Origin: Escherichia coli
GTDB lineage: Bacteria > Pseudomonadota > Gammaproteobacteria > Enterobacterales > Enterobacteriaceae
Length of the DNA stretch: 64,000 nt
NCBI RefSeq assembly: GCF_030013205.1
Contig: NZ_CP122648.1
Direction: 5' to 3' (one strand)
The notes beneath the pieces are model-generated. The model saw nothing but the letters and a program-made list of their open reading frames with translations, did no database searches and was not told the origin of the DNA. The position numbers were made by a program, and so were the translations under genes. Every line of letters starts with the position of its first letter. The stretch's first letter is position 1. Shown here in pieces: positions 33,752 through 55,087 of this stretch.

Positions 33752-34109
33752 CCTGTCACTTACCGACCTTCACCGCATTCAGTTTGACGAGAAATTTACC
33801 GGGCAGCTACTGGTCCATGTGGAGAACGGGCGCATAGTGCGTAATTACCACCTGCCGGATGGTGCAATTGCCGGAAGCGTTGAAGCATTGCTGGAAATGG
33901 CAGAACGTGCGCGACTGATTAAGCCGTTAACGTGCCATCACGATGATGATCTGCATTTTACCGGACGCATGGTGAGCCATTATGAAAACGGCGTTGAGGT
34001 ATCCCGCGAACGTCTGCGTGATGATTGCTGTTTCGGCACATTGCCGGAATTTATCGAATTGCTGACCGATTGCGGTTATCAGGTAATTCAGAGCAAGACG
34101 CAGGAGTAA
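33744..34109 (+). CDS. hypothetical protein (121 aa)
   Basis: ORF track; operon context upstream of primase. Confidence 0.6.
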   Translation: MINLSLTDLHRIQFDEKFTGQLLVHVENGRIVRNYHLPDGAIAGSVEALLEMAERARLIKPLTCHHDDDLHFTGRMVSHYENGVEVSRERLRDDCCFGTLPEFIELLTDCGYQVIQSKTQE

Positions 34110-34115
34110 AAAACC

Positions 34116-34406
34116 ATGAAAAAGAAAAATTCTGGCTTTACTGCCAGCGGCCCCGCTCGGCCTGAAATCAAACACGGCGATATTTACCGCGACACCAGAC
34201 GTGGGGGACGAGTGGTTATTCGTCACGTTACGCCAGGCAATATCACCTACCGCCGTGAGGCTTACGAATATGACTGCGTAATGCCGCGCCGTCAGTTTGA
34301 GCGTGATTTTATTCTGGTGGAAAACAAACAACAGGCGGTGGCGAGACGTGCAGCCACGAATATTAAAAAAATCCGGGCAATGTTGGTTGCGGGAGGTAAG
34401 AAGTGA
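34116..34406 (+). CDS. hypothetical protein (96 aa)
   Basis: ORF track; 4-nt overlap with the primase start. Confidence 0.6.
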   Translation: MKKKNSGFTASGPARPEIKHGDIYRDTRRGGRVVIRHVTPGNITYRREAYEYDCVMPRRQFERDFILVENKQQAVARRAATNIKKIRAMLVAGGKK

Positions 34407-36208: not shown

Positions 36209-36236
36209 TACGAAATTTATAAGTTGAAACTTAAAA

Positions 36237-36572
36237 GTAGACGGTTGGTAGACAGATACACTTAACCCTCTACCAACCATCTACTAATTAATGTTTTGAA
36301 TTATATAGGTATTTTTAATGTGGTAGAGAGGTGGGCAGTTATTTCTATATTCCTAAACCACGGGGGGTATATAAAAAAACAGATAGTTAAGGGTTCATTT
36401 TTTAAATTTCTCTTTTAACTGTCTACACTGTCTACCATTTAGTAAAAATCATTAATTATCAATGTATTAATGCGGTAGACAGTTAGTAGACAGTTTGCAG
36501 ATTGTTTTTTTGTTATGAGTTAATAACATTAAATAAATCAATCAATTATATCGGTAGACAGTTGGTAGACAG
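36237..36572. repeat. putative replication origin: paired GGTAGACAG iterons flanking an AT-rich segment
   Basis: GTAGACGGTTGGTAGACAG (36237-36255), inverted copy (36268-36284), TGGTAGAGAGGTGGGCAG (36321-36338), inverted pair (36419-36436), GCGGTAGACAGTTAGTAGACAG (36473-36494), TCGGTAGACAGTTGGTAGACAG (36551-36572). Confidence 0.7.
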
Positions 36573-36580
36573 TTGTAACG

Positions 36581-37123
36581 ATGGGGCAAAGCATGACTAA
36601 GCTGACCATTAACAGAAAACCGAAAGGCATTTATGGCACGCCGCAGAAAACGACGCAGGCGGCACAGGAGCAGGATAAAACCACGTCGGCGCATAAAGTG
36701 ATGCCCGGTAACCAGAAAGCGCAGCAGAAGCCCACAGGGGCGACACCGTGGCGGCATATGACCAAGCGCCAGCGCAAAAACCGCAGGCGCATTAACCGCC
36801 TCACTGAGTTGTGGCCTGAATTATTCAGCCGGGAAGCACCGAAGCCGCTTAAGGTGGGGATATTCGACGACCTGATGCAGGATCTCGCCGTCAGGGGGCT
36901 GGCATTCGGTCCAGGGGCATTGCGTGCGACGCTGGCATCTTATGCACAGTGTCCGCGCTATTACCGCGCCTTAATGGCTGGTGGGGTACGCTACGACCTG
37001 AAAGGCCAGCCGTGCGGCGAGGTGACACCACAGGAACAACAGGACGCAGAAACGCGGCTGGTGGCGCTGAATGAGAAGCGCAAACGTCAGCGCCGGGTAG
37101 CAAAGGAGAAAACAGGCGCATGA
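36581..37123 (+). CDS. ProQ/FinO-domain RNA-binding protein
   Basis: PLKVGIFDDL...LRATLASYAQCPRYYRAL...YDLKGQPCGEV parallels ProQ (PLKIGIFQDL...LRSALRLYTSSWRYL...VDLDGNPCGEL). Confidence 0.75.
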   Translation: MGQSMTKLTINRKPKGIYGTPQKTTQAAQEQDKTTSAHKVMPGNQKAQQKPTGATPWRHMTKRQRKNRRRINRLTELWPELFSREAPKPLKVGIFDDLMQDLAVRGLAFGPGALRATLASYAQCPRYYRALMAGGVRYDLKGQPCGEVTPQEQQDAETRLVALNEKRKRQRRVAKEKTGA

Positions 37124-37407
37124 TTCACGACAGCAAAGCGGAAGCACTGGAAGCGCGTGGTCTGTACCGGAGAGCGGCGGCGCGGTGGGCTGAGGTCATC
37201 ATGCTGGCGAATGATGACAAGGCACGGGAACAGGCGGCAAAACGTCGCGCGGAATGTATCCGCAAGGCAGCACGCCCACCAGCACGGCAGGATAATTTCG
37301 GGGAGATGCGCGAAACCATCAGCCGGGCACATGCCGGGATGGGATTACATCAGCCCAATGGTAAGGCATTCAGGAAATACCCTGGATCGAAAAATTGCAG
37401 TCAGTGA
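37120..37407 (+). CDS. PerC-family transcriptional activator-like protein
   Basis: 95-aa ORF; SKAEALEARGLYRRAAARWAEV matches the PerC-family N-terminal signature; ATGA overlap with the upstream gene. Confidence 0.6.
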   Translation: MIHDSKAEALEARGLYRRAAARWAEVIMLANDDKAREQAAKRRAECIRKAARPPARQDNFGEMRETISRAHAGMGLHQPNGKAFRKYPGSKNCSQ

Positions 37408-37608
37408 CGGAGGCCGGGATTTTTCCCGGCTTTTTTGTGCCAGTAAAAAGCCCGCAGCCAGAAGTGTTGCGGGCTTTGTTTTTCAGGTGATTGAAGTCAA
37501 TGGGAAGAACGCGATCATCATGCGTTATTGTTTCATAAATTGCAATGATGTAGATCGTCATTTCAGTTTGTGCAATCATAATCGTTGTTTTGTTCAGGAG
37601 ATATGACT

Positions 37609-37782
37609 ATGAGAAAAGCCAGCGTGAAACCTGTTTTACTCGCTCGTGATCAGATTGAAGCATTACAGCGCATCCAGGACGAGGAACGCCGCAATTCTCC
37701 GCTGGGGATTGCTCCGAGCATTCATGAGGTCGCCCGGCGTTTAATGCAGCGGGCGCTTTATCCCGTAGAACGTCCGGCCTGA
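37609..37782 (+). CDS. hypothetical small protein (57 aa)
   Basis: ATG at 37609, 9 nt after an AGGAG RBS; ORF track 37585..37782. Confidence 0.45.
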   Translation: MRKASVKPVLLARDQIEALQRIQDEERRNSPLGIAPSIHEVARRLMQRALYPVERPA

Positions 37783-37821
37783 TGGTCGTGATTTTTTGGT
37801 GAAAAAAGAGAGGTGGTAAAA

Positions 37822-38400
37822 ATGCCAGCAAGCAAAGAAGATTTGCGATTAAAACTGATGGAGGTGGTTAACGCTCTGTCAGAGTCGCAGGGCAGCACTC
37901 CGCAGGAGATTATCGAAATTCTGAATGCGATCCCCGCACAGGATTTCATAAAAGAGGATAACGCTAATCAAAACATCGTCGCGTCAGTCGAAGATGAATC
38001 CTCACTGGCAGAAGCCCAGGCCAAAGCGGATTCCGCATACAGCAATATGGGCCGTCGAGCTCCGGCCCCGTTTGCTGGTGAAAAGTCGATGGATTACCGC
38101 AAGCGTGCATTAATTGGCGCACAGAAGCTGGCTAAAAAATTCAGTGATGTGGATATTCGTTCCGTTTCAGATTCTGCAACGCTGGCGGTGCTGGAAGATC
38201 AGATTTACAAGGCTGCTCAGGAAAGTGCTCAGTGGGCCGTGGAAAACACGCCGGGTTATTTGACTAAAAAAGTCAGGATGGATGAAGCCGGGCGCCGGAT
38301 TACTGAATATCAGGGGGATCCGAATAACTGGCTTAGTGCTTTCAAAATCCCTCCCCGTCGCCTGGTCAAAATTAACGTTGCAAGCCTCGCGGGGGCATGA
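37822..38400 (+). CDS. hypothetical protein (192 aa)
   Basis: ORF track 37813..38400; ATG at 37822 follows GAGAGGTGG. Confidence 0.65.
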   Translation: MPASKEDLRLKLMEVVNALSESQGSTPQEIIEILNAIPAQDFIKEDNANQNIVASVEDESSLAEAQAKADSAYSNMGRRAPAPFAGEKSMDYRKRALIGAQKLAKKFSDVDIRSVSDSATLAVLEDQIYKAAQESAQWAVENTPGYLTKKVRMDEAGRRITEYQGDPNNWLSAFKIPPRRLVKINVASLAGA

Positions 38401-38464
38401 AAAACGTGCTGATTTCAGCCCTGCCGGATTTGGCGGGGCTTATTGATTATAACCGGGTGACATT

Positions 38465-39148
38465 ATGCTTTTAACAGAAATTGAGGCGGCAAAGCAGATT
38501 CGGGACGGTCAGCTACCGTCGCCTTATCAGTTCTCCAACATGTGGCTGGTTAACCTGCGTATTACAGGGACTGGCATGGCCTACCGCGCCGAAGAAAAAG
38601 AATTTGTCTGGCGTTCACCGCAAACTTATCTCAATCCGCAGTTCCTGGAACGTTGCGCCGGAGTACCCGTCATTATCGACCATCCCGAAGGCAAAACCAT
38701 TGAAGACGTTGGCGAACGGTCGCGCATTATTGGCACCGTCATGTTGCCGTATATTCGCGGTGACGAGGTGTGGGGTGTATGCCGGATTTACGGGCAGGAA
38801 ATCATCGATTACATCCAGAAAGCACGGGGGGAGGTATCCACCAGCCCGTCGGTTGTGTTTTGTGGTGCGTCCGGTGGGGCAGAAGTTCCTGATGTAATGG
38901 GCGAGGACAATTTTTTCATTGAGGGTACGCCATTTCTTATCGATCACGTTGCGCTCGTACCGTTGGGCGTATGGGATAAGGGCGGGAAACCATCAGGTGT
39001 GGAAGTAACAACGCCGACAGAAGAAGAACAGCTCGCCGGAATGGTCCGTGAAGTTATTGATGCGGCCTGCAAGCCAGCTCTGGAAAAACTGGAAGAAATA
39101 TCCGGGCGGCTGGATCAACTGGAAAAAAACAGAGTGAGTGAATCATGA
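38465..39148 (+). CDS. hypothetical protein (227 aa)
   Basis: ORF track; overlaps the next gene by 4 nt. Confidence 0.65.
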   Translation: MLLTEIEAAKQIRDGQLPSPYQFSNMWLVNLRITGTGMAYRAEEKEFVWRSPQTYLNPQFLERCAGVPVIIDHPEGKTIEDVGERSRIIGTVMLPYIRGDEVWGVCRIYGQEIIDYIQKARGEVSTSPSVVFCGASGGAEVPDVMGEDNFFIEGTPFLIDHVALVPLGVWDKGGKPSGVEVTTPTEEEQLAGMVREVIDAACKPALEKLEEISGRLDQLEKNRVSES

Positions 39149-39762
39149 AAATTGCTAAAAACTTAAATCTGATTATCCCTGTGCGCACTGAAAAGGGTAA
39201 TGGCTGGCTCCATGCCACGCCGATCAGCAAAGAGGTGTTTAAAGAGCATTTCTTCATCCTGAGTAAAACCTTTTCTGCCATTTTTTCTGAAGGTCTTGGT
39301 GTTGTTGCGGGTCCGCGCGTTGCCTGCCTTATGCTGGAGAAAATCTCCCGTGACTCCGGTTTATGGGATGGGGAGAAAGGCATACGTAATACGCTCATAA
39401 ACGAAATTATTCGCCTGGCAAACCTTGTTTATCCAGTGGAGGGCAAAGGCTACGACACAATCCCTCTCGATATGGCGCTGGAGCGTGAAATCGTTGATTT
39501 GGACGAAGTGGCGGGTGAACTTGTTTTTTTTACATGCGTCTCGTCGATAAATTCCCCGGAGCAGACGAAGGGGACTATGGATGCGGTGAATGGAATATGG
39601 AGCACTCAATGCTCGTCCTTGAGTCTTACGGAATGGATCGATTCATTGCCGACATTGAAGCCTGCCGTCAGTTCTGGCGCGACGGCGAACACGTCATCAG
39701 CGACATCCTCGACTACTCAGCCGGAGCCGGATTCAGAGACATCTGTGCAGATTCCGGTCTGA
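39145..39762 (+). CDS. hypothetical protein (205 aa), Ser/Thr-rich C-terminus
   Basis: ORF track; translationally coupled to the upstream gene. Confidence 0.65.
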   Translation: MKIAKNLNLIIPVRTEKGNGWLHATPISKEVFKEHFFILSKTFSAIFSEGLGVVAGPRVACLMLEKISRDSGLWDGEKGIRNTLINEIIRLANLVYPVEGKGYDTIPLDMALEREIVDLDEVAGELVFFTCVSSINSPEQTKGTMDAVNGIWSTQCSSLSLTEWIDSLPTLKPAVSSGATANTSSATSSTTQPEPDSETSVQIPV

Positions 39763-39826
39763 ATGTAAAAACAGCAGCTCAGTTTCGTGAGCTGCTCAAA
39801 TTCAAAAATCCCGCAGGAGTATTGTA

Positions 39827-41866
39827 ATGTCAGGTAATCAGATGCCAGTTCTGACGCTGGACGTTAATGAAGAACACCTCAAACGGCTTGAGGCAATTTT
39901 TGAAAAGTATCGCAACGGGCTGATGATCGGCCCTGCCGGAACGCCGATGAAAATACCGGGGCAAAGTGGGCGCAGCGTGGGGGCAGGCTTACCCGTGGCG
40001 GCAAAATCTGGTCGGACAGGACCGGATGTATCCGGGAGAGTGAGGGACGAAAAAGGGCGCTTTGTCGGCAGCGGAAAAACAGCAGATTCGTTCGTAAGCA
40101 ACTATAAAGGTCGCGGCGAAACGATGTTTGATAAGTATCTCAGCGGGCTGGGGAAAAATGCCCAACAGACGCTGAAAACTTACAAGCAGATCAATTCTAC
40201 ACTACAGACGACCACTTCAAGATTAAACAACCTGTTTAAAACAACCGTATCGTGGGGAACAAAACTCTCGGTTATGGGCGTTGCCGGACCGTTTGGCTTT
40301 GGCATGATGTCCCGTAGTGTTGTAGAGAAACAGAAAAATGCAGATGAGCTGGTGGCAACGCCAGGAGAGTTAAAGGCGGCAGAAAGCACTTATTCGCCTT
40401 ATTTTTCCGGTGTTGGCAATGTGCTCAATACACTGGCAGCAGCACAAAATGATATATCGCATCCTGCCCGCGTCGGCCTGCTTAATCTGGGGCTAAATCC
40501 TGATAAAAACGCGACTGAAAACCTGCCTGTATTCCTGAAAAAGGTTGCAGAGCTGGCAAAGGAATATCAGGGAAGTGGTCTTACCCAGAGCATGCTCAGG
40601 GGAAGAGGGCTTGGATGGGTAAATTTTGGTCTTACTAACCAGTTAGTCAAATATCAGGACAAAATACCTGAACTCAACAAAGAGTTTTCGTTACGTGCAG
40701 CGCAGAATGATTCGTTACTGACCTCTGCACATACAAGTAAATATCAGAATATTACCAGTAACCTGGAAAAAAACTGGGATCGGCTTACCAGCGGATTTCA
40801 GGGAGCAATGGCGGGGAATGAAGACGCTTTAATCAGAATGTCTGATGGTGCCACGAATGCTGCCCTGAATTTCATGAATGGTGAGAACTTTAAAAGGATT
40901 CTGACGGATGTAGAAACGGGGCTGGATAAACTTGGTAAGTACGTAAATGGCCCGGATTTTAATAACGACCTGAACAATTTTGCCGAAAACGTTGCAAAGG
41001 TTGTTAAGGCACTTAGCGGGTTTGTTGGTTTTGCGGTTGAACATCCCTGGCTTTTTGGGGCCGCAGTACTTGCTGGACCATCGAGAGTTGGTGCTGTGGC
41101 AGCCACAACGACCGGAGTTGCCGCCCGTGTTGTTGGTGGAAGTCTTCTTGGGGCTACAGCCGGAACAGTAGCTGGATTGGCTATTCCTACAAATGACACA
41201 CCTACCACCAGTGAGGAAATGAAAGGGCTGGAGGGGCGTTTCAACTTTGATTATTTTAACGAAGTGCAGGAGTGGCAAAAAAACAATCCGGGTAAGGTCT
41301 GGCCTGGAGGATTGCAGGGATTTTCAAATCAAGTAAACAGATCTGCATATTTATCCAGAGGGATCAGGAATAACAATCCCGGAAATCTTAATTTCGCAGG
41401 ACAAAAAGGGGCTACCCTGGAATCGGGGCCAAATGCCCGTTTTGCCAGCTTCCCGACGATGCTGGAAGGCATTGCCGCCTTAGATCGGCAGGTAATGCTA
41501 TACCTGAAACGCGGCAAAAATACGATTGATCAGATTATTGATATTTATGCCCCTTCATCTGATGGAAATAACACATCGTCCTATAAAAGCTATCTCTCTC
41601 AGTACACCGGATTAGGTGTTAAGGAGAAAATCGATGGTTCTAATTTTGAGGTCATGAAAAAGCTAATTCAGGGCATTATTAACCATGAAAATGGTGCTGC
41701 CGCTAAAGCTGTAAGTGTTGAAGATGTGATCCGGGCGCTGGCTATGAATCGTGGGATTGTCCCTGCAGCAGGAAACAATGATCAGAACGTTAAGTTGGAA
41801 ATTGTTCGGAACGCTGGTGCCGATTACTTCGCGCAACTAATTGGTGCTCAACGGTTCCTGGGATGA
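39827..41866 (+). CDS. large hypothetical protein (679 aa) with glycine-rich hydrophobic segment, tape-measure-like
   Basis: AGGAG RBS; central segment AVLAGPSRVGAVAATTTGVAARVVGGSLLGATAGTVAGLAI; function not assignable from sequence. Confidence 0.7.
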   Translation: MSGNQMPVLTLDVNEEHLKRLEAIFEKYRNGLMIGPAGTPMKIPGQSGRSVGAGLPVAAKSGRTGPDVSGRVRDEKGRFVGSGKTADSFVSNYKGRGETMFDKYLSGLGKNAQQTLKTYKQINSTLQTTTSRLNNLFKTTVSWGTKLSVMGVAGPFGFGMMSRSVVEKQKNADELVATPGELKAAESTYSPYFSGVGNVLNTLAAAQNDISHPARVGLLNLGLNPDKNATENLPVFLKKVAELAKEYQGSGLTQSMLRGRGLGWVNFGLTNQLVKYQDKIPELNKEFSLRAAQNDSLLTSAHTSKYQNITSNLEKNWDRLTSGFQGAMAGNEDALIRMSDGATNAALNFMNGENFKRILTDVETGLDKLGKYVNGPDFNNDLNNFAENVAKVVKALSGFVGFAVEHPWLFGAAVLAGPSRVGAVAATTTGVAARVVGGSLLGATAGTVAGLAIPTNDTPTTSEEMKGLEGRFNFDYFNEVQEWQKNNPGKVWPGGLQGFSNQVNRSAYLSRGIRNNNPGNLNFAGQKGATLESGPNARFASFPTMLEGIAALDRQVMLYLKRGKNTIDQIIDIYAPSSDGNNTSSYKSYLSQYTGLGVKEKIDGSNFEVMKKLIQGIINHENGAAAKAVSVEDVIRALAMNRGIVPAAGNNDQNVKLEIVRNAGADYFAQLIGAQRFLG

Positions 41867-41917
41867 TTTAAATACACGCGCTTTCCGGCGCATTAATACA
41901 GTCTGAGGGGAAGTGTC

Positions 41918-42445
41918 ATGTTTATGAGCAAGGCAGAATATGCCAAACACAAAGGCGTAAGCCGCCAGACAGTTTACGACTGGATCGAGAAAGGCGAAGT
42001 GATCATGTCTGGCAAAAAAATTGATGTGGAAGCGACAGAGCAGCGGAACAGCCCACCAGCACAGGGAAAAGATACCGTTTCTGAAATGTGGCCAGAGAGA
42101 ACGCTGGAAATGACGTGGGGCGAGTTCTGGAAAGCAGTTAAGGCCAGAGACGGTAAAATCCCTGCACCAGTAACGGACAATGACATACAGCAGCGTGTAC
42201 AGGATGCAGCCGGGGAACTATGCTGTGAAGTGCAATTTCTTGATGATGGTGCTATCTGCCTTGAGGATTATGCTGGGCAATATTACTTTGAGCAGTATGA
42301 TTTTCGGGAAAATGCCAGGCTGGCAATTCGTATGCTGCGTTGTGAGCTCTGCTATGTTGCAGGTGATTGTCCCGATGAGCTGGATAACTGGAGTGAAGCC
42401 GGACTAAACGCCCTGGCTGAGTGGGAAAAATCAGGCCATCAATGA
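41918..42445 (+). CDS. HTH protein resembling terminase small subunit Nu1 N-terminus
   Basis: N-terminal KAEYAKHKGVSRQTVYDWIEKGEV resembles the lambda Nu1 winged-HTH region; GAGGGGA RBS; 175 aa. Confidence 0.55.
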   Translation: MFMSKAEYAKHKGVSRQTVYDWIEKGEVIMSGKKIDVEATEQRNSPPAQGKDTVSEMWPERTLEMTWGEFWKAVKARDGKIPAPVTDNDIQQRVQDAAGELCCEVQFLDDGAICLEDYAGQYYFEQYDFRENARLAIRMLRCELCYVAGDCPDELDNWSEAGLNALAEWEKSGHQ

Positions 42446-42451
42446 CCTCAA

Positions 42452-42732
42452 AAAGTGTCAAGTTGAGCAGCTTGCCAGGTTGACACTTTACACTCTGAAC
42501 GCGAAAAAGTGTCAACCTCGCTGTAAGCCCCGCCATTACTGGCCTTTCGCCAGATTTACCACGTCAAAAAGCCGAAAAAATCGCGAAAAGTGTCAAGTTG
42601 CCATGCTTAGAAATGCTAAGGTTTGATAAGGTTTTTCGCGAAAAAGTGTCAAGTGTGTCAACCTGCGATGTTAAGATTTGTTAAGGTCTTAAGCCGGAAA
42701 GTGTCAACCAGCCCCCTAAGATTTCCTAAGGT
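42452..42732. repeat. array of AAAGTGTCAA direct/inverted repeats interleaved with TAAGATTT-nn-TAAGGT motifs
   Basis: AAAGTGTCAA at 42452, 42506, 42587, 42643, 42698; inverted copy 42480-42489; TAAGATTTnnTAAGGT at 42673 and 42717. Confidence 0.75.
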
Positions 42733-42739
42733 GTAAACC

Positions 42740-42919
42740 ATGACCATCACCGAAGCCGATTTGCTGGAGATGATCCGCAGCATTGCCGGAATCAAACAAC
42801 CAGCAAGCAAAATTAACAGGTGTTCAGCGCCTGTTTCCGTTGTGCTGCAGCAGGAACGCCACCAGCATGATGATGTGAGGCCGTATCAGTGGCGGAAACC
42901 GGACAGGCCGCGACGGTGA
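42740..42919 (+). CDS. hypothetical small ORF (59 aa)
   Basis: ATG after an AAGGTG RBS just downstream of the repeat array; below the ORF-track size cutoff. Confidence 0.3.
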   Translation: MTITEADLLEMIRSIAGIKQPASKINRCSAPVSVVLQQERHQHDDVRPYQWRKPDRPRR

Positions 42920-43385
42920 GCGGAACGTTCGGTAAGGCTACAGCCAAGCCAAACATTAAGCCTACGGGTAACCCTTCGAAGGGGCTTTAAAGGGGAGATG
43001 ATTATCCTTACCAGTTGATAAACAAGCAAACCTCAAATTTGAGGTTTGTATCTGCCTGACTTATTTTTGTGCTAAGTTGTTGATATATCCGACGACACAA
43101 ATTTGCGTTCTGTGGCTGGTGGTGGCGAGTTACGACCGATCATTTCCTTCCTGGCAGGTTACATCCTGCTGCTCAACTACTACGGTAGCCACTACGATTA
43201 ACTACGCGATGCCGATATGGGGATTCCCATATCGGTTTATCCGTGATCATCCACCAGCTTGATCACGGTTAACAGGGGATGTGTAATCCCCAAGCGAGTG
43301 ATAAATGTGTATAGAAATGTGTATAGAATTTATTTTAGAACTCGCGAATGCGCCTTTATTACTGGCCTTGTGGCTTGTTGTATTG

Positions 43386-43403
43386 TTCCCTTCGCCCGCT
43401 CCA
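43386..43403 (+). repeat. att direct repeat (18-bp copy of the glyU 3' end) at the island 1 / island 2 junction
   Basis: TTCCCTTCGCCCGCTCCA is identical to tRNA positions 29148-29165. Confidence 0.85.
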
Positions 43404-43900
43404 GAATCTCCCCAGGTGGAGAAGACTAAAAAAGTCTTCTCTGTCAGCAACTTAAACAGTTACCTATTTAATTTGCTTAGGAGTTCTACCATTGTGATCC
43501 GCCCTTAGTAACTGTCACGTTAAGTTACTCGGTGAGATGACAGTATAACCTAACGTTGGCGGCAGTTGCACCTCTCACACCGCGATAGCACAACGTGAAG
43601 ATAAAGCCCATCCTGGCATTGTAATGTCATCGACAGACTGAACACACGCATTTAAGCCCGATGTGCGGCCTTGTGGCTGCGTAAACAGGTTTATGGTGAT
43701 ATTGGTCCTTGCAAACCATATGCAAGCTCTATCAGCGTTTCAGCCACGCTCCCAACGGGTACACGGTTATCCTGATAAGGTGTGATCTTTCTGACAATCT
43801 GATGAAGTCGCTACGCTCCCGCTTGTTGCTGTATCACCAACGGGGCTTTATGGTTTCTATTGTCTATAATAATCTCACAATTCCCCTGCATGAGGTTGAT

Positions 43901-44107
43901 ATGACTGTTAGCTACAAGATTACTTATGAGCATAGAGACGGTGATCAAATTAGAATGGAAGAGGTTTTATTCCATTCAGAGCATGAACCAACAAAAGATG
44001 AAATTCATGATGCAGTAAGAAAAGATACTGTGAGATTTAATTCTCCATCTAATGGAGTAACGGCTGTTTCAGGGTTTAAAGTGATTTCGGTTGTCCCTGT
44101 TCCATGA
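43901..44107 (+). CDS. hypothetical small protein (68 aa)
   Basis: ATG at 43901 after a GAGG RBS; ORF track lists a longer 43709..44107 frame. Confidence 0.5.
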   Translation: MTVSYKITYEHRDGDQIRMEEVLFHSEHEPTKDEIHDAVRKDTVRFNSPSNGVTAVSGFKVISVVPVP

Positions 44108-44140
44108 ATGGTTATAGAAGGGGCTGGAAGCCCCTAATTA

Positions 44141-44461
44141 TTACTTCTTAATATCGCCAGTGCATTGATATTCGATAGTCACAAGTGTTTGCATACAACC
44201 AGATGAAGAAGGTTGTGAACATTGAGAAGTGAATCCACCAAAAGGCTCGGCTCCTGAATATCCCCAAGCGGCACAACGCGCTTTGGCTGCATTCATGCCT
44301 TGTTGTGGATCTACAACAGGACTTTCAAACATACCGTAAGAATAACTCATCCTAACTGTGCCGTCTGATTTGCTTCCACCAGTTGGAACGAGTTGTTTTT
44401 TTGTTGCACATCCAGAAATAATCAATGTTGAAGCAAGTAACAGCATTAAACTTTTGCGCAT
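44141..44461 (-). CDS. small lipoprotein (106 aa), Cys-rich
   Basis: Signal peptide with lipobox LIISGC; convergent with the upstream gene across a GGGGCT-GGA-AGCCCC hairpin (44117-44131). Confidence 0.7.
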   Translation of the reverse strand: MRKSLMLLLASTLIISGCATKKQLVPTGGSKSDGTVRMSYSYGMFESPVVDPQQGMNAAKARCAAWGYSGAEPFGGFTSQCSQPSSSGCMQTLVTIEYQCTGDIKK

Positions 44462-45113
44462 GTAAATAATCCCAAGAGATAATGGTTATGTATTGATTTA
44501 AAGCGTTTTTAGATTAATGCATTAACTTAGCAAAATTAAGTCTTTTCTGATTGTTTGCAGAGTAAAAATGAGTTGCTTTCGAAATTATTTCGGATGTTTA
44601 TTGTATTACGGTTTTTCAAACCGTCTAACTATTGTCGCTATTGAATGGGCAATAATAGCAAGAGGATTCATTTCGTCATTGGAGGCAACAAAAAGTCGGT
44701 AACTGATAGCTACAACGAATGAAACAATAACGAGAAAGCGGATAGTGCTAAGATGTTTTGAAGATAAATGCATAACGCCCCCTAAATGAATGTGAGGGGG
44801 ATTAAATCATGCAAATTTGTTGTGTGCAATACTGGTAATTTATCCTAATAGTCTACTATTCACCTCAATCTACGTCAACCAATATTTGATGTAGATTTGA
44901 TTTTCTTTTAAAAACAATATGTTGCAATTTGTTGGGTTTTGGGGTTAGGTTGTTTTTTGGACGTTTCCATCAAGTGTAAAGATACGTTTAGCCTTCATAG
45001 TGAGTTCAGTTACTGTCTTTTTCTCTGAAATCGGCGCATACGTGATCATCGCTTAACGAGAAGATCAGCGCCGTCAGGTCCATGCAGCGACAATTCTGAA
45101 ATATCAGGAGGCA

Positions 45114-45665
45114 TTACGCTTCCTGCTCTTTCTTGATACGTTGCACCGTCTGTGTGCTGACACTGAAATCTTTTGCTACGCTCCGAATTGATCCACCATT
45201 CGCGAGAGCGGCAACAATTCCCGCTCGATCAATTGCTTTTCCATTACCACGTTTTGCTATACGCCCAGCTGCCTTAGCTGCGGCGATCCCTTCACGTTGA
45301 CGCTCAAGCATCATTTCACGTTCCATTTGTGCCACTGCTGCAAGCACTGTGAGCATCATATTCCCTGCGGGAGAGTTCTTCCCTGTCTTAAAGTCTTCTT
45401 TATGGAAATGCACAGACACGCCGCGCTCTGTTAATTGCTCAACCGTTGCCAGAAGGTCGGCTGTATTACGGCAAAGGCGATCAATACTGTGAACATGCAA
45501 AACATCACCTTCCCGCACATAGTTCATCATTGCCTCAAACTGTGGGCGCTGGGTATTCTTGCCTGACGCTTTATCTTCAAAGACTTTATCAAGAGCTACT
45601 CCAGCTAATTGACGGTCTGTGTTTTGTTGCACAGTCGATACCCTAATGTATCCAATATTAGCCAT
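45114..45665 (-). CDS. serine recombinase (resolvase/invertase family)
   Basis: 183-aa ORF; N-terminal IGYIRVSTVQQ with catalytic Ser; C-terminal HTH (SIRSVAKDFSVSTQTVQRI). Confidence 0.85.
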   Translation of the reverse strand: MANIGYIRVSTVQQNTDRQLAGVALDKVFEDKASGKNTQRPQFEAMMNYVREGDVLHVHSIDRLCRNTADLLATVEQLTERGVSVHFHKEDFKTGKNSPAGNMMLTVLAAVAQMEREMMLERQREGIAAAKAAGRIAKRGNGKAIDRAGIVAALANGGSIRSVAKDFSVSTQTVQRIKKEQEA

Positions 45666-46166
45666 TTTCTTTATTCCTTCTGTGTTGATTTGTGTGTAGT
45701 GATTATTGATCGTGTTGATTAGGTGTGTAAAGGACTTTTTTCACTACGAAATTCGAAGGTTTTTAGTGTGGTGATTTAGCCTGCTTTATCACTACACGTC
45801 TTGCATGAGAATCATGTAGTTACGTTTTGGTAAAATTAGCAAGCTATTAAATAGTGTGTTTATTTTGAAAAAATAATTTTTTGTTGCATTAAAGAAAACT
45901 TGTTCGACAAATAATAGATTGATTTTTAATCAATAATTTCTGATAGTGCTCTGTAAGCCGCATTACACAAGGCTTTGCGAAAGTGATGTAAAAGTGAAGA
46001 AAGTAAGAATTGCACTTTTAAGCTACTTTTCATTGAATTTTTAGTATGGAATTACACAGGGATTAATCATCAATTACATTGAATTTAAGCCTGTTTTAGA
46101 TGTTTAATTTTGGTAGCAAGAAACACTTTTAGAAGATCATTGCACAGATGTTATGTGATAAATGGA

Positions 46167-46325
46167 TGTAACGATGGGTTACATTCAGCTATCTGAAATA
46201 CTCTCTGTAAGAAATTTGGTAGTAACGATTCGTTACATAGACTAATTATTGAATGTAACGATATTACACATCGGTAGTAACGATACGTTACATCGGCAGA
46301 TGATTGGTTGTAACGAAAGGTTACA
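46167..46325. repeat. five palindromic sites TGTAAC-n5-GTTACA (and GTAACGA-n-TCGTTAC variants)
   Basis: Sites at 46167-46183, 46223-46237, 46254-46268, 46276-46290, 46309-46325 inside a 1.7-kb non-coding AT-rich region. Confidence 0.75.
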
Positions 46326-47357
46326 CAATAAGACTAACATCTATAATACTAATAATAAAACTAACTATTAAACTATATAATATAATTCTTTTTTATCTTT
46401 ATAAGAATAATTATAGGGATACCCGTTAGGGAGTCTAACGACTATCCCTTAATCTATTGGCATTCGCCAGAACCTTGCACAAGTTAGAGTGTTAGTCGTT
46501 AGACTGCTTGTCATAACACATAGTTTTTGTTTGTTGATGTTAGTTAGTAGATCTATGTTCGCTTTCCGCTCACAACGAATATGTAATCTACTATGTGCAA
46601 ATAGCCTACGGCTTGCGTAAGGCTAAATAGTCTTGCGCTGTGCGCAGAACGATAATTAACTAACTACCATCTAACGATCATCAATCATCTAAAATAAATT
46701 TCTTGTGCAATGTTCTTGCGAATGCAATTAGGGTAGCGTTACCCCTTTGGGGATGCTAACGCATAACTATAGATCAACCATCAAACAGACAAAAAAGAAA
46801 AATATGGTTTAAAGATGTTAGGTAGTAGATGAGTTTCTACCGCTTAAATCAAGCCGTAGGCGAGCTAAACGTATATAAGGTAGGGAAACACTTAGCGGTA
46901 ATAGATTAGCTCGTTATAGAGATTCTGAGGAGCTTTACAGGTATTTTATAAGGTGTCTGAAATTAGATTTTATCTACCATCACCTTTTCATATACCTAAC
47001 AAATACAAAATAAGCACCTTAAATAAGCCTCTGGCGAGCTAAACGGTCATTACATAAGGGAATGTATTGTTTTTATCAAAACCTCGTTAGAACGCGTTTT
47101 AGAGCGTTATTAGACAATAATGAAGAATAGCACTACACAGGAGAGCACGAATTGCTAAGACAAATTATAAATTGCTGAAATAGATCGGATTTTTTGCAAA
47201 ATGGTATTGACAAATGTCTCTTTCTGTGCAATAATAGGTATTAGAGGGACAGAAAACATTCTTATCCTCTAAGTAATTAAACCAATGCACCGCACTTTGA
47301 GCCGTCAGGCTGCAAGGTGTCTTTTTCTTTTAACCAAATAGAATAGGAGGTTAATTA

Positions 47358-47540
47358 ATGAAATATTTCACTCCACAGGATGTAGTAGAAGCCTGGAAAC
47401 GTGGTGAGATCAATCGTTTTAAAGTAAGGATGAACAGGAACACAGCGCGACGCTGTGGTTATCCAGAGCGTGAAAAATGTTTTGACGATGCACTAAAAAT
47501 TATTGATGAACTGCGTAAGGCAGAAGTAGAGAAAGAATAA
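47358..47540 (+). CDS. hypothetical small protein (60 aa)
   Basis: Strong AGGAGG RBS; ORF track. Confidence 0.65.
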   Translation: MKYFTPQDVVEAWKRGEINRFKVRMNRNTARRCGYPEREKCFDDALKIIDELRKAEVEKE

Positions 47541-47561
47541 TAACAGGAGAAGGAGAAAACT

Positions 47562-47729
47562 ATGAGCGAAACTAAGAAACCAATTCCGCGCACTTACCTA
47601 CACGTTGACCCTGAAATCTTCAAGGTTTTATTTGCTGAAGCCAAGAAAAGGCAAATTATGGTCAGTGATTTGATGTTAGAAATCATTACTGAAGCAGCAG
47701 AGAACATCAAACAAAAAAAGGGTAAGTGA
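47562..47729 (+). CDS. ribbon-helix-helix-like small protein (55 aa)
   Basis: Manual translation MSETKKPIPRTYLHVDPEIFKVLFAEAKKRQIMVSDLMLEIITEAAENIKQKKGK; GGAGAAGGAG RBS; below the ORF-track cutoff. Confidence 0.55.
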   Translation: MSETKKPIPRTYLHVDPEIFKVLFAEAKKRQIMVSDLMLEIITEAAENIKQKKGK

Positions 47730-47782
47730 TCCTCATTCACTTTAGTAGCGCATTAAGCGTGATTTATAAGGAGATAATTCTA

Positions 47783-48463
47783 ATGTCTAAAATTAAATTG
47801 ATTCGTGAAAAATACCAGTATGTTGATAAACAAACAGGAGAAATTAAAGACAGAACTTTGAATATACCACACTACTTTTGTGAGATTGAATTCATCTACT
47901 CCTCAAATATTGAGGATGGAAAAGCGAAGTTTAGTGCAGAAATGCAAAAATTATATTGCTATGTTTCAGATTGGGAGAAATCAGGGGGGATATGTTTTGA
48001 AACACAAACGAAGTTAAGTAAAGTTTGTGGCTGTAGCCGTAAGACAGTTAATGAATTGATTGGTCTTATGATTAAAATCGGTCTTTTAGAAGAGGTCGGA
48101 GAACGAATCCCAAAACGTCCTTTAAAATTACGTGCGCTACTTCTCACAGATGCACATATTACTCCCCCTGGAGAATCATCACTACCTGATCCTTCTGAGA
48201 AAGAAGACGAATCTAATGAAATATTGAATGTTTCCGAAATCATCCTTGAAGAAGAAACACAAGAGCCAGAGTTCCCTGAGCGGCCCGAAATTTTTACTTG
48301 GCTTCTTTCCCTTGATAAGAAGAAACCACCGCACGAAGAAACAGAAGATTTTGTAAAACGTGCATTAGATTCAAAGAATATCTATCTTGAGAAACAGGCT
48401 TTTCACGATCTGATAATATCTCTAAGAGAAAAAAGTGAAATATACGATTCAATACCATTCTAA
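47783..48463 (+). CDS. winged-HTH protein (226 aa), possible replication initiator or regulator
   Basis: AAGGAG RBS; HTH-like TQTKLSKVCGCSRKTVNELIGLMIKIGLLEE; acidic C-terminal half. Confidence 0.65.
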   Translation: MSKIKLIREKYQYVDKQTGEIKDRTLNIPHYFCEIEFIYSSNIEDGKAKFSAEMQKLYCYVSDWEKSGGICFETQTKLSKVCGCSRKTVNELIGLMIKIGLLEEVGERIPKRPLKLRALLLTDAHITPPGESSLPDPSEKEDESNEILNVSEIILEEETQEPEFPERPEIFTWLLSLDKKKPPHEETEDFVKRALDSKNIYLEKQAFHDLIISLREKSEIYDSIPF

Positions 48464-48472
48464 GGAGAATAA

Positions 48473-48742
48473 ATGACTTATAACATCACTATAGGAAACA
48501 AAACTATTGAAATAACTGAAAGCGGATACAACATTTTAAAAGCTATTTTGGAAATAGAGTTCTCACCGCCGACAGTGGTTAGCTTTTGTAGTTTAGGCGG
48601 CTACAGCGCACAACACGTGAATCATTGGTTAAACCATTTTACATCGTTCGGTGTGCTGGATTATGAAGGGATTAACAGCACTACATTTCGTCTTTTGAAA
48701 TTAAACAAAGATTTTGAATTGTTTATCACAAACAATCAATAA
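48473..48742 (+). CDS. hypothetical protein (89 aa)
   Basis: AAGGAG RBS; ORF track. Confidence 0.6.
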   Translation: MTYNITIGNKTIEITESGYNILKAILEIEFSPPTVVSFCSLGGYSAQHVNHWLNHFTSFGVLDYEGINSTTFRLLKLNKDFELFITNNQ

Positions 48743-48838
48743 CAACAGATCGGGCAATACATATGGCAAATGCATTTATGGCGATATTCATTGTAACAAT
48801 GGTATCAAGTTTTTATAATCCACATAAAAAGAGGGAAA

Positions 48839-49222
48839 ATGGGAAGAAAGAAAAAGAACAACTTAAAACGTATTGAAAAAAACAGTAACTTCAATTCAAC
48901 AAGACAACGTCCACCGACACACACCAATAACGAAATTCCAGGGGAAGAGATAATATTTATTCTTGAAACAGAATCCCCTGAATTAAGCGATGAAGAATTA
49001 GAAATAATCCAGTCAATGCCAGGCGTTTACTTTCGCCCAAGAACAAGAAAACAAACTATCATTTCTGATGGCACTCTGAAACGTTGGCAGCTTTTAGGGT
49101 TTAGCTCCTATCATCATTTTTTGGGATTTAACGCTTTCAATAATTGTGTAGGTGGTGCATCGGAAGTCGATCTGATGGCTCATTTAGAAGATACATTAGC
49201 TTCTAACAAACGTTCTAACTAA
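48839..49222 (+). CDS. hypothetical protein (127 aa)
   Basis: AGAGGG RBS; ORF track. Confidence 0.6.
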   Translation: MGRKKKNNLKRIEKNSNFNSTRQRPPTHTNNEIPGEEIIFILETESPELSDEELEIIQSMPGVYFRPRTRKQTIISDGTLKRWQLLGFSSYHHFLGFNAFNNCVGGASEVDLMAHLEDTLASNKRSN

Positions 49223-49237
49223 TAAAATGATGGGAGT

Positions 49238-49510
49238 ATGTATAAGCGCCCAATGAAAATAATCGAAAAAGGAAAAATAATGATTAACTATCAACTATTA
49301 GAAACAACATTTTTTAAAGAAGCAAAACAACTTGCAGAAGTGTTTATTTCACTGGCTGAACGAGCAAAAGAAGAAAATGATTTTGCCTTGCTTGATGATG
49401 TGCTGGATGACATTGCAACCTATCGTATACCGCTACAGATTGCACTAAACAAGGCTAAACAGATTCAGCAAGAGATGGAATCAGCAGATCAAGGAGAGAT
49501 TGCACAATGA
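49238..49510 (+). CDS. hypothetical protein (90 aa)
   Basis: ORF track; 4-nt overlap with the next gene. Confidence 0.55.
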   Translation: MYKRPMKIIEKGKIMINYQLLETTFFKEAKQLAEVFISLAERAKEENDFALLDDVLDDIATYRIPLQIALNKAKQIQQEMESADQGEIAQ

Positions 49511-49815
49511 CAGACAACATTCTGGAAGTTATGGACACTCTTTCGGATCGGATGATCGCCCTACAGACACGTATCAATCAAGCCTATTCAGATTTATGCG
49601 ATTACACGCTCTCTCAATGCGTTAGTAGCTTAATGAAGGTGAATGTAAGCCTTGACGATTTCATCTCTCTGGTGAGCGATTTAGAGCTATCTAAGGACGA
49701 TGTCAGGCTGTGTACTCAAACCATCACAGACACCGCCAGCACGTTAAAGGCTGCAAGTGAAGAGATTCAGCAATTAGTAGATGATTTAGCAAAAAGTGCT
49801 ATTTTCTCCAAATGA
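49507..49815 (+). CDS. hypothetical protein (102 aa)
   Basis: AAGGAG RBS; ORF track. Confidence 0.6.
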   Translation: MTDNILEVMDTLSDRMIALQTRINQAYSDLCDYTLSQCVSSLMKVNVSLDDFISLVSDLELSKDDVRLCTQTITDTASTLKAASEEIQQLVDDLAKSAIFSK

Positions 49816-50807
49816 TAATGAAAATCATTTGCATTTATAACGATTTCATTATATAATGATATTAGGGGTAGATAAAAAGGTTTTGACTGGTGTTAATCCT
49901 TCTACTGTCATAAATCCCTGCATATGGAAGGTGATAGCCTCAAGGGTTGAGTGGCATTAACCTCTAACAAATATTACCTTCCATCTCTCAAGAAGTTTTA
50001 GAATAATCATAACTCCCTCTTTGATTGTTGATTGTTTCTACGTTGTGTTGATGAATGTTGTTAGGCATTGTGCTTAATTTTGATAAAAGCGGGTAGGTGT
50101 TATCTCCTTGCCCTTCCCGCTCTTATTTTTCATCTATGCTTATCCTAAAGCTCCTTATTTTGTCCGAAAACATTAAAGAGCCTTACACTGATAGTTATAT
50201 TTTATAACTATTTACTAACATCATTAAACTCTTATTTAATGACAGAAGTTAGTAACAGAATAATCTATTAAGTTGTTGTCAAAAAACTATCATCTGCATA
50301 GCGTTAGCCGCAAGTAGAGAGAGTTTAGTTAAGAATGGTGCAATAAACTTTGGAAATATTGATAGCAAAACTAGTTTTATAGAATGCGGATCTATAATCT
50401 TTGGTTGTAAAAACGATTTTCTGAAACGGTAGATTACTGTTGGTGTAGTTAATCCTTATTAAAAATTTAATCTGTGAGTAGATTGGAATAGTGATTCCTT
50501 AAAATCTGACTGGTGCATCCACACCATGAAAGATAGCAGTTGGCCACCGCGCCCCGAATAGATATTCCTGATTGATTCCGCATGTTTTCCTAAGAGCATG
50601 TTTTCAGGAATATCTGTTCACCCTTTAAACCTATCTTTAAGCATGTTTAATAAGCATTCTTAGAGATACGTTTAAAACCTCCTCAAGGTTTTACTTATCG
50701 CTGTGTATTGCCCGACACGTTAATAAATCCCCCTCGCTATTGTCAGATTGAACCTCTTATAGCCTGGGGGATTTATTAAATTCCAGCATAATGGAATCGT
50801 TATATAA

Positions 50808-51017
50808 ATGAAACAAGAAATTATCCTGAAATATGGCAATGAAAAGTTAACACTAACTGAAGATGTGTTGAATGCTACAGCCTACGCGCTTGGCATCACT
50901 CCCACAGAATTAAAGAAACAGTGTGAACGTCTTTATAAGGCTGAAAGCAATAAACCATCTCACCAAGATTTGATTAATGCTAAAGCTCAACAAATCAAAC
51001 AATCTAAGGAAAAATAA
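50808..51017 (+). CDS. hypothetical small protein (69 aa)
   Basis: ORF track; stop overlaps the next start (TAATG). Confidence 0.5.
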   Translation: MKQEIILKYGNEKLTLTEDVLNATAYALGITPTELKKQCERLYKAESNKPSHQDLINAKAQQIKQSKEK

Positions 51018-51391
51018 TGGCTATTTTAAAATTAAGCGATGTTTTCCCACATCGTAAAAGCATCACTGACGTAGTGAGCTATGCAACCGACCCTTACGCG
51101 GCTGTAGAAAGCAAAAAATTTGCAGCACTTGCACAAGATGTAACGTGCGGCGACCTCATTGATTCATCCGGCGCTAAATATGTTAGCGGCGCTGATGTTC
51201 TTGTCGTTGTGTCTGACTTCGTAACTGCTGATTCAAATAAAACAGTTAACGTGCTTCGTGCTAATGCCGGACTCGTTTGCATCAAAGCTGATGCCCTGAA
51301 TGCCGAAGGCGCTGTAAAAGAAGCTGCTATTGCAGCTCTCGCTGCTAAAGGCTTCCAGCTTGAAGGCTTCCACTCTGTTTTCACATCTTAA
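51017..51391 (+). CDS. putative phage head decoration-like protein (124 aa)
   Basis: Position directly upstream of a major-capsid-like gene, as for lambda D/E; the assignment rests on context only. Confidence 0.45.
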   Translation: MAILKLSDVFPHRKSITDVVSYATDPYAAVESKKFAALAQDVTCGDLIDSSGAKYVSGADVLVVVSDFVTADSNKTVNVLRANAGLVCIKADALNAEGAVKEAAIAALAAKGFQLEGFHSVFTS

Positions 51392-51407
51392 GAAGGAATA
51401 AATAATA

Positions 51408-52436
51408 ATGATTATCGGAAATGAAGTGGTTGATCTTGCTCCACTGTTCGAATTAAACGACTCACGCAATTACCTACTGTCTACTCTGGATTTTACTGAT
51501 CCTGTGCCTGTAGAAAGTCACAAAGTGGCTGTTTCCCAGCTTATCGAGAGCAATGAATCTCTGTTCAACCATCCTACAAGCCGTTTTAGCTCTGAGCATA
51601 ACGTTACTAAGCGTGAGAACGGGGAAGAATGGCTGATTGAAATCCCTTACTTCCTGCGTGAAGACCTGATCAAACCGCAGGACGTGCAAGGCAAACGCAA
51701 AGCCGGAAGCTCTATTGAAGAAACACTGCCGGATCTGTATGCGGAATATATCGCTACACACAATGTTGCATTCCAGCGCACTAAAGAAAGCATCCTCGCG
51801 GCTTCTCTGTTCTCTGGCAAGACACATACCCCGAAAACTGACGATGTTCTGATCGACTACAGCACTCTGTTCGGTGTGTCTCCAATGACTGCAACCGTTG
51901 ACGCATCCAGCACCAACACAATGACCGTATTCAAGCAATTTGATCAGATGCATACGGATATGATTGCTAAGGCACAAAGCCAGGCTGCAACCATTGAGCG
52001 TGTTGTTGTGTTCTGTAAACCTGCGGCATTCAACGCTATTCGTTACAGCGTTGGCATGGTTAATGCGTTCCAGTATGCAAGCCCTGTAGACGATGCAAAC
52101 GTGGTGTTTAATGTGCGTTCTCTGCTGCCTGGTGTAACTACTTTCACCATTCCAGGAACTAACATTGACCTGATCAAAGTGACTGATCCGCTGCTGCTGG
52201 CACATATGACCGCTGACGCTGTAGCTATTCCTAAACTTGCTAAGGGGGCAGGTGTTTACCAAGCTATTTTTGGTGCGCCTTCCAGTTCATTCGATCTGCT
52301 GTCTCAAGGCGCTAAAGAGTATTACAGCTATGCTTTCGAATCGAATCGCGGCGACGCAGTGCACGTAGTGACCGAGAATAGCTCGCTTGTGGTTAACCAC
52401 GGTGTTGGCTTCTCTGTGCAGATCACAGTAGCGTAA
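51408..52436 (+). CDS. putative phage major capsid protein, lambda E-like
   Basis: 342 aa (lambda gpE is 341 aa); C-terminus ...GVGFSVQITVA resembles the gpE C-terminus ...DEFVSVQLA; N-terminal DLAPLFEL region. Confidence 0.5.
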   Translation: MIIGNEVVDLAPLFELNDSRNYLLSTLDFTDPVPVESHKVAVSQLIESNESLFNHPTSRFSSEHNVTKRENGEEWLIEIPYFLREDLIKPQDVQGKRKAGSSIEETLPDLYAEYIATHNVAFQRTKESILAASLFSGKTHTPKTDDVLIDYSTLFGVSPMTATVDASSTNTMTVFKQFDQMHTDMIAKAQSQAATIERVVVFCKPAAFNAIRYSVGMVNAFQYASPVDDANVVFNVRSLLPGVTTFTIPGTNIDLIKVTDPLLLAHMTADAVAIPKLAKGAGVYQAIFGAPSSSFDLLSQGAKEYYSYAFESNRGDAVHVVTENSSLVVNHGVGFSVQITVA

Positions 52437-52590
52437 AAAGTGTTAAAGACGTTCCCCTACGTCTGGAAATAATCGGGGCAATAAGGGTAAGGGATAATCA
52501 TATAAGCAAAATATGCGCTGTCTCTTGCACTTTTTGTTTTTCTACTGTCTACAAACCCAAATAAAAATATATATATGTGAGAGAAAACCA

Positions 52591-52788
52591 ATGAATACAG
52601 AAAATTCACAGGCATTAATTCTTAAATCTGTAAAAGAACTGGCAGCTATTAGCGATGACTCAATAATCAATGTCAGTGCCTTATGCAGAATGCTTTCAAT
52701 TGATGCAAATAATGTGCGGCAGCGTGTGTTTCAGACTGGATGCAGCACTTTTGAAGCAATTACATACTACTGTTCTAAAAAACAATAA
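52591..52788 (+). CDS. hypothetical small protein (65 aa)
   Basis: ATG at 52591 within the ORF-track frame 52513..52788. Confidence 0.45.
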   Translation: MNTENSQALILKSVKELAAISDDSIINVSALCRMLSIDANNVRQRVFQTGCSTFEAITYYCSKKQ

Positions 52789-52822
52789 TAAACAACAATC
52801 ATAATACAGGGAAACAATTAAC

Positions 52823-54646: not shown

Positions 54647-54721
54647 ATCTCCAGACAACCAATATCACTTAAATAAGTGATAGTCTTAATACTAGTTTTT
54701 AGACTAGTCATTGGAGAGCAG

Positions 54722-55087
54722 ATGATTGATGTCTTAGGACCGGAGAAACGCAGACGGCGTACTACACAGGAAAAGATCGCTATTGTTCAGCAGAGTTTTG
54801 AACCGGGAATGACGGTCTCCCTTGTTGCCCGGCAACACGGTGTGGCAGCCAGCCAGTTATTTCTCTGGCGCAAGCAATACCAGGAGGGAAGTCTTACTGC
54901 TGTGGCCGCAGGAGAGCAGGTCGTTCCTGCCTCTGAACTTGCTGCTGCCATGAAGCAGATTAAAGAACTCCAGCGCCTGCTCGGCAAAAAAACGATGGAA
55001 AATGAACTCCTTAAAGAAGCCGTTGAATACGGGCGTGCAAAAAAGTGGATAGCGCACGCGCCCTTATTGCCCGGGGATGGGGAGTAA
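54722..55087 (+). CDS. insC: IS2 transposase OrfA (InsC)
   Basis: [41 protein letters not shown]... matches IS2 InsC. Confidence 0.9.

Follow-up and report, generated by a model that had tools for sequence, protein, structure and literature searches.

The window analysed here is the whole stretch of 64,000 nucleotides of Escherichia coli DNA (contig NZ_CP122648.1); across the 18 kb that were compared, it is 100% identical to the chromosome of E. coli ETEC4079 (NZ_CP122643.1), a strain of porcine origin. It contains a single tRNA-Gly(CCC) gene (glyU, 29082–29155), the 3' end of which, GATTCCCTTCGCCCGCTCCA (29136–29155), recurs at two positions further to the right (Table 1); the three copies indicate that two unrelated elements have been inserted in tandem. 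Island 1 (29156–43403) is P4-like, with an integrase, an int-alpA RNA, a primase and an Icd-like gene; the Rfam match to the int-alpA sRNA lies just downstream of the integrase gene (30579–30646, plus strand, 45.5 bits). Island 2 (43404–58149, 14.7 kb) carries Rep-like, E-type major capsid, tape-measure-like and Dit-like tail protein genes, an IS3 insertion and, at its far right end, an integrase gene, and is regarded as a satellite or remnant because it is too small for a complete tailed phage. In strain K_EC180, which lacks island 1, the tRNA gene is followed directly by island 2. The IS3-family element (54722–55950) sits between the tape-measure-like and Dit-like genes; K_EC180 lacks it and has a slightly longer ORF upstream. 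No direct nucleotide matches to sequenced phages were found.

A minus-strand ORF for 106 aa, already labelled ‘YecR family lipoprotein’ in RefSeq, ends 738 bp from the left end of island 2, in agreement with the first-pass annotation, which had placed a lipoprotein of this length just inside the island. Its TAA stop occupies 44141–44143, and the remainder of the interval noted at that stage (44108–44140) lies outside the ORF, in an intergenic gap that contains a hairpin. The N-terminus reads MRKSLMLLLASTLIISG/C18ATKK..., with the lipobox I-S-G-C (LIISG/C18). In E. coli, the residue at position +2 of a lipoprotein decides its membrane destination under the Lol rule, and Ala at +2 directs the protein to the outer membrane, so that outer-membrane delivery is expected for this lipoprotein. 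The four cysteines previously counted beyond the lipobox are C63, C81, C89 and C100, all of which are located in the mature domain; like C18, they do not vary in an alignment of 50 sequences, the K-12 YecR among them. The GC content of the gene is 41.7%, close to the 40.9% of island 2 as against 50.6% for the core, and its composition is foreign. The AT-rich context suggests that the gene could be subject to silencing.

Table 1. Features at the left and right ends of island 2 (positions in the window)
Feature	Position	Strand	Basis or remark
att repeat at the junction of islands 1 and 2	43386–43403	+	copy of the tRNA-Gly 3' end
Variant-specific cargo segment, from the left att to the shared backbone	43404–44634		siblings align only from 44635
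Convergent hypothetical ORF	43850–44107	+	85 aa in RefSeq; 68 aa from the ATG at 43901
Perfect hairpin AGGGGCT-GGA-AGCCCCT, 7-bp stem	44119–44135		between convergent stops; position kept in homologues on other backbones
YecR-family lipoprotein CDS	44141–44461	-	ATG start, 106 aa; RefSeq WP_001232281.1; PF13992; sequence and fold of 7BGL
Signal peptide and lipobox, residues 1–18, Cys18 predicted to be lipidated, Ala at +2	44408–44461	-	sequence; conservation of C18
Conserved 5' block of the cassette, Shine-Dalgarno GGGA, probable promoter	44462–44571	-	upstream conservation across backbones
Unannotated hydrophobic 55-aa ORF between recombinase and cassette	44606–44773	-	ORF list
Serine recombinase of the resolvase/invertase type, shared backbone	45114–45665	-	Pfam Resolvase, 5.7e-39; phrog_125, 5e-62
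Island 2 integrase gene	56822–58042	-	far right end of the island
att repeat at the right end of island 2, adjoining the integrase gene	58130–58149	+	copy of the tRNA-Gly 3' end

The protein matches Pfam family PF13992 (YecR) over the full model (positions 1–73 of 73; E 1.8e-23; score 83 bits, gathering threshold 27). When the PDB was searched by sequence, the one real match was the YecR chain of 7BGL (E 9e-10), the structure of the Salmonella flagellar LP ring, in which 26 copies of this chain are present. An AlphaFold (AF2) model built on the 50-sequence alignment (pLDDT 88) predicts that the mature part is a folded α/β domain of 85 residues. When this model was searched with Foldseek, the YecR chain 7bgl_1 was the sole match at E <= 0.001 (E 1.3e-5, TM 0.73/0.91 with the higher value on the target, rmsd 1.4 Å over 84 residues, 28% identity). 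In the LP ring, YecR is a lipidated outer-membrane protein bound to the outer face of every FlgH subunit, and its N-terminal cysteine lies level with a normal bilayer (bioRxiv 10.1101/2020.12.05.413195). The canonical yecR gene is strongly FlhDC-dependent and its product has been suggested in the literature to protect or remodel the outer membrane around the L ring; a later paper reports that YecR is dispensable for L-ring formation and assigns it no role.

The window gene is not the host's own yecR. Of 5426 complete E. coli genomes, 5419 have the core gene, located near ftnA in K-12 (b1904), and 124 (2.3%) have the island gene, in all cases on the chromosome and with at least 99% identity in 123 of the 124. 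A few of these E. coli copies are 5'-truncated, which indicates that the gene is dispensable. Orthology to the canonical flagellar YecR failed on three counts, namely an identity of 29% to the K-12 protein, a locus in an island at tRNA-Gly and the presence of a separate core yecR, and the window gene is thus a second, divergent paralogue beside the core copy. The two proteins share their Pfam family, length, lipobox, four aligned cysteines and fold, but the window lipoprotein is only 28–29% identical to the Salmonella and E. coli proteins and is encoded by an accessory gene on a mobile element, whereas canonical yecR is a core, FlhDC-regulated gene. No flagellar genes are present among the neighbours of the lipoprotein gene, and a search for a sigma-28-like promoter upstream of it found none, the best match having 7 mismatches in 16 positions.

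The stop codons of the lipoprotein gene and of the convergent ORF (TGA at 44105–44107) are separated by a gap of 33 bp. The perfect hairpin that had been described between the two genes is indeed located in this gap, and its core, GGGGCT-GGA-AGCCCC (44120–44134), can be extended by one base on each side. Its fold energy is −12.8 to −13.5 kcal/mol, with z-scores against shuffled sequence of −1.8 (plus strand) and −2.4 (minus strand), so that taken alone it is only modestly better than shuffled sequence. A pattern scan scores it as terminator-like, in a region where three such sites are found against 2.4 expected, which is no excess over chance. The stronger evidence for a terminator is the conserved position across homologues. 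Of the 8 distinct enterobacterial homologues located on other backbones, 7 have a G/C hairpin 4–10 nt past the stop, followed in several by a T run; among 94 homologue loci, 25 show a fold with z < −2 in the 60 nt that follow the stop codon. Because it is conserved after the stops of homologues, the hairpin is assigned to the lipoprotein gene as its predicted terminator.

On the other side of the gene, about 110 bp upstream of the ATG is conserved alongside the ORF and its hairpin in elements with different flanking genes, and blastn similarity to one relative from another Enterobacteriaceae genome (L007) extends to 44553. From its sequence, the cassette is a self-contained unit comprising this 5' region with a probable promoter, the ORF and its own predicted terminator. 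The convergent ORF lies outside the conserved cassette. It has no match in Pfam, PHROG, NCBIfam or PADLOC, its homologues are confined to Escherichia, and it is not present beside yecR-like genes elsewhere. It was consequently rejected as a functional partner and is an incidental neighbour, for which neither linkage to the lipoprotein nor the status of a real gene can be shown. At 43647–43870 there is a non-coding block of 224 bp that is about 90.6% identical to unannotated DNA of many plasmids from Citrobacter, Serratia, Morganella, Enterobacter and E. coli, and that in one E. coli IncFIB plasmid lies directly beside relBE.

Comparison with sibling elements shows where the cassette stands in relation to the rest of island 2. 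Elements inserted at tRNA-Thr (thrW) beside proBA (E. coli ZJ3920 and A15; L102/L103) share with island 2 the recombinase, the small ORF and the genes to the right, carry a 50-aa ORF in place of the yecR cassette, and align with the window only from 44635 onward. The same backbone block is found next to sopAB on an IncFIB/FIC plasmid, where it again aligns only from 44635 and the lipoprotein gene is missing. Since these siblings share the backbone without the cassette, the leftmost 1.23 kb of island 2 (43404–44634) is a variable cargo slot and the lipoprotein gene a moron. The element family to which island 2 belongs thus recognises at least two different att sites and varies in the cargo at its left end. 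Taking this status together with the family assignment, it is virtually certain that the window protein is a mobile member of the YecR family carried as cargo. The reading of the first-pass annotation is supported in part. The gene for this small lipoprotein is cargo at the margin of a phage-like island; the protein is predicted to be of the disulfide type and located in the outer membrane, and its homologues occupy classic moron positions. The superinfection exclusion or receptor masking put forward in that annotation found no direct support.

The hydrophobic 55-aa ORF has an annotated counterpart of 52 aa (60% identity) at the same position, downstream of the 99%-identical recombinase, in the IncF plasmid and in the tRNA-Thr siblings, and probably encodes a real small membrane protein. 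The serine recombinase is 99% identical to the one next to sopAB on the IncFIB/FIC conjugative plasmid, which suggests a plasmid-type multimer-resolution module within a phage-like island. Inverted repeats are present at 44690–44706/45006–45022 and 46454–46483/46702–46731; inverted queries found the inverted orientation of the two candidate segments in 0 of 384 and 0 of 375 matching E. coli genomes. Phase variation of yecR driven by the recombinase was rejected, given the lack of inverted genomes and the fact that the recombinase belongs to the backbone and is present in siblings without yecR.

Adjacency of a recombinase and a yecR-like gene recurs in Xanthomonas plasmids, Pantoea and Janthinobacterium. 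In other Enterobacteriaceae relatives (L007–L010, ~7337–7552), a small tyrosine recombinase (192–205 aa) and a secreted, cysteine-containing protein of 66–71 aa stand directly upstream of the yecR-like gene, where the window has the serine recombinase module. A conserved two-gene module of recombinase and yecR was nonetheless rejected, since the recombinases are about 30% identical or of another superfamily, their orientation varies, and a recombinase is found within 7 kb of the yecR-like gene in just 12 of the 80 genome loci examined. The recurrence is treated as co-location in cargo or stability regions.

The wider family relations of the window protein were followed by an exhaustive homologue search, which, with cut-offs of E <= 1e-3 and E <= 1e-10, gave 799 and 396 representative clusters respectively. 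Members of the subfamily are 45–92% identical to the window protein and have in common the motifs PTGGS(K/R)xDG(T/I)V and C-x-AWGY-x-G-A-E-PFGG, both of which are missing from canonical YecR. They occur in Enterobacterales, Methylococcales, Pseudomonas, Xanthomonas, Burkholderiales, Alphaproteobacteria, Pasteurellaceae and other taxa, and many of their genes are found on phages, prophages, islands and plasmids. The Bordetella phages BPP-1, BIP-1 and BMP-1 carry a homologue, which in BPP-1 (bbp28) is a lone gene on the opposite strand, and two phages reported for Synechococcus have one just upstream of the tape-measure gene. In a lambdoid prophage of Rodentibacter the homologue lies between ninG and the Bro/lysozyme (lysis) genes. 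A P4-like island of Pantoea ananatis and capsid-E elements located next to actS in other Enterobacteriaceae also carry homologues.

On plasmids, homologues are found in Xanthomonas, both on conjugative plasmids and on others; the presence of a YecR-family gene on Xanthomonas plasmids has been noted before (PMC4619425). In plasmids of about 2.1 kb from Salmonella, Shigella flexneri and Klebsiella pneumoniae (NZ_CP100751.1 with eight similar PLSDB records, and CP052474.1), the homologue, 56% identical to the window protein, is the only credible ORF. No match to RNAI at the gathering score was obtained on the 2.1-kb plasmid, and its classification as ColE1-type was for this reason dropped; a 5-kb Klebsiella plasmid with a homologue does have RNAI and Rop. 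Plainly chromosomal copies are also known, in Aggregatibacter (between queH and miaB), Herbaspirillum and Roseateles. These copies, and the fact that most of the 80 loci have no recombinase nearby, indicate that not all members of the clade are mobile and that its role may be a general one in the envelope.

The hosts of the subfamily include Klebsiella, Shigella, Aggregatibacter and Rodentibacter, which are known to lack flagella. The function of the subfamily therefore cannot require the L ring. This distribution, on phages, on plasmids and in hosts that lack flagella, further sets the window gene's subfamily apart from canonical YecR. Membership of the YecR family was already annotated, and what is new here is the existence and mobility of a non-flagellar subfamily: a sister group of a recently recognised flagellar basal-body component has been captured repeatedly by phages, satellites and plasmids, also where flagella are absent. 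The first-pass annotation had held that homology to a housekeeping lipoprotein would refute a role in phage exclusion. Homology to YecR is formally present, but in a mobile paralogue of 29% identity and not in the housekeeping copy; given this and the occurrence of the clade in non-flagellated hosts, the homology neither refutes nor supports exclusion.

Our best guess at the function, offered tentatively and by analogy with known systems, is exclusion, or protection of the carrier cell at the outer membrane. This role is preferred because the gene is retained by mobile elements whether or not the host is flagellated, and in some cases is all that they carry. In the mechanism proposed, the lipoprotein would be sorted by the Lol pathway through its Ala at +2 and anchored in the inner leaflet of the outer membrane, with two DsbA-made disulfides among the four invariant cysteines stabilising its fold. 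It might then dock, laterally or from the periplasm, on a protein embedded in the outer membrane, much as YecR does on the FlgH L ring. The docking partner would probably not be the flagellum, because mobile elements keep the clade in hosts that have none, in some cases with no other gene. The carrier would thereby be protected from entrants that use the outer membrane, such as a superinfecting phage and possibly a bacteriocin or conjugative DNA, in a mode similar to that of Llp and Cor but reached with a different fold.

Llp of phage T5 and Cor of phages phi80, N15 and HK022 are small phage-encoded outer-membrane lipoproteins that act on the FhuA barrel from inside the cell. Like them, the window gene is mobile-element cargo and a predicted standalone transcription unit, and phage and prophage copies of its family exist. 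In contrast, there is no sequence or family relation in Pfam or PHROGs, and the fold search of the window protein gave only YecR, so that any likeness of function is by analogy. The lambda-type morons bor and lom and the plasmid-borne TraT have the same organisation, in which a promoter region, an ORF and a terminator occupy a variable slot and encode an outer-membrane protein (a prediction in the case of the window gene), but no homology to any of these is seen.

Searches of PHROGs, Pfam, NCBIfam and PADLOC gave no link to Llp, Cor, TraT, Bor or a defence system, and PADLOC-DB matched neither the lipoprotein nor the two small ORFs next to it; assignment to a known defence or exclusion family was dropped, nothing meaningful having come from PADLOC, PHROGs or NCBIfam. 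No homology or experiment that ties any YecR-family protein to exclusion was found. A yecR knockout was one of the hits when knockouts were screened for inhibition of lambda infection (PMC2900299), a weak hint that the YecR fold can influence phage entry.

An alternative, which we consider unlikely though worth weighing, is that the protein is an envelope-fitness conversion factor, Bor/TraT-like or barrier-maintaining, which promotes survival in serum, in detergents or under outer-membrane stress and does not exclude entrants. The distribution on mobile elements fits this role equally, the housekeeping-type chromosomal contexts in some taxa agree with it, and so does the suggested part of YecR in protecting or remodelling the outer membrane around the L ring. 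Against it stands the lack of homology to Bor, Iss or TraT.

It is rather doubtful that the window protein is a flagellar accessory paralogue which binds FlgH and joins or replaces the host YecR in the L-ring belt, with consequences for flagellar assembly, for protection of the outer membrane near the motor or for susceptibility to flagellotropic phages. L-ring binding is exactly what the only characterised homologue does, the fold is kept at an rmsd of 1.4 Å, and the host lineage is H1-flagellated (O139:H1 relatives). Nevertheless, identity to the Salmonella and E. coli proteins is merely 28–29%, canonical YecR lacks the clade motif PTGGS(K/R)xDG, and neither a flagellar gene context nor a sigma-28-like promoter is seen, whilst the clade is present in the non-flagellated Klebsiella, Shigella, Aggregatibacter and Rodentibacter, as well as in the phages reported for Synechococcus.

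That the gene is a functionless passenger, hitch-hiking in a decaying island, is improbable. Truncated alleles in some E. coli, the incomplete appearance of island 2 with its IS3 insertion and the presence of the gene in just 2.3% of genomes would be expected of such a passenger, but the family is kept across proteobacterial classes at 45–60% identity, with invariant cysteines and in 799 representative clusters, the terminator and 5' region are conserved along with the ORF, and on the 2.1-kb plasmids the gene is the sole cargo. A role in lysis, as an o-spanin or as a lipoprotein of the bacteriocin-release type, is scarcely credible. In its favour are a weak PHROG match to an Rz-like spanin (E 0.091) and the character of a small, cysteine-containing outer-membrane lipoprotein. 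The match, however, is confined to the signal peptide (residues 2–26) and includes no significant stretch, the mature part is predicted as a folded 85-residue α/β domain where a short proline-rich peptide would be expected, and no i-spanin, holin or endolysin is a neighbour; a lysis role, including that of an Rz1-like o-spanin, is effectively refuted by this domain architecture and gene context.

Were the preferred role of exclusion or protection correct, the protein would add a new fold to the small known set of exclusion lipoproteins, and would hint at what the flagellar YecR was recruited from. A bolder and unlikely extension is that the YecR fold is primarily a tool of mobile elements, in which the subfamily would dock on outer-membrane protein assemblies to exclude phage, DNA or toxins as a new structural class of exclusion lipoprotein, the flagellar YecR would be a domesticated offshoot and the 2.1-kb plasmids would be minimal ‘exclusion plasmids’. 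The mobile subfamily offers a concrete handle on the role of the YecR fold through a single 0.5-kb cassette; should the cassette prove inactive, what remains is an accessory lipoprotein of an ordinary kind, already annotated, within a cryptic island.

Two further parts of the window deserve mention. To the right of the recombinase gene, 45666–47357 is a non-coding, AT-rich stretch of 1.7 kb (33.6% GC) with repeated GTAACG-N-CGTTAC palindromes, especially at 46165–46324, and it contains the 30-nt inverted repeat at 46454–46483/46702–46731, the arms of which are 87% complementary and 218 nt apart; the palindromes and this repeat may represent the origin, iterons or operators of the element. Beyond island 2 (58340–64000) are a GH15 glycoside hydrolase gene, a gene for a GhoT/OrtT-family toxin and the start of the ETT2 type III secretion cluster (sctC and gatekeeper).
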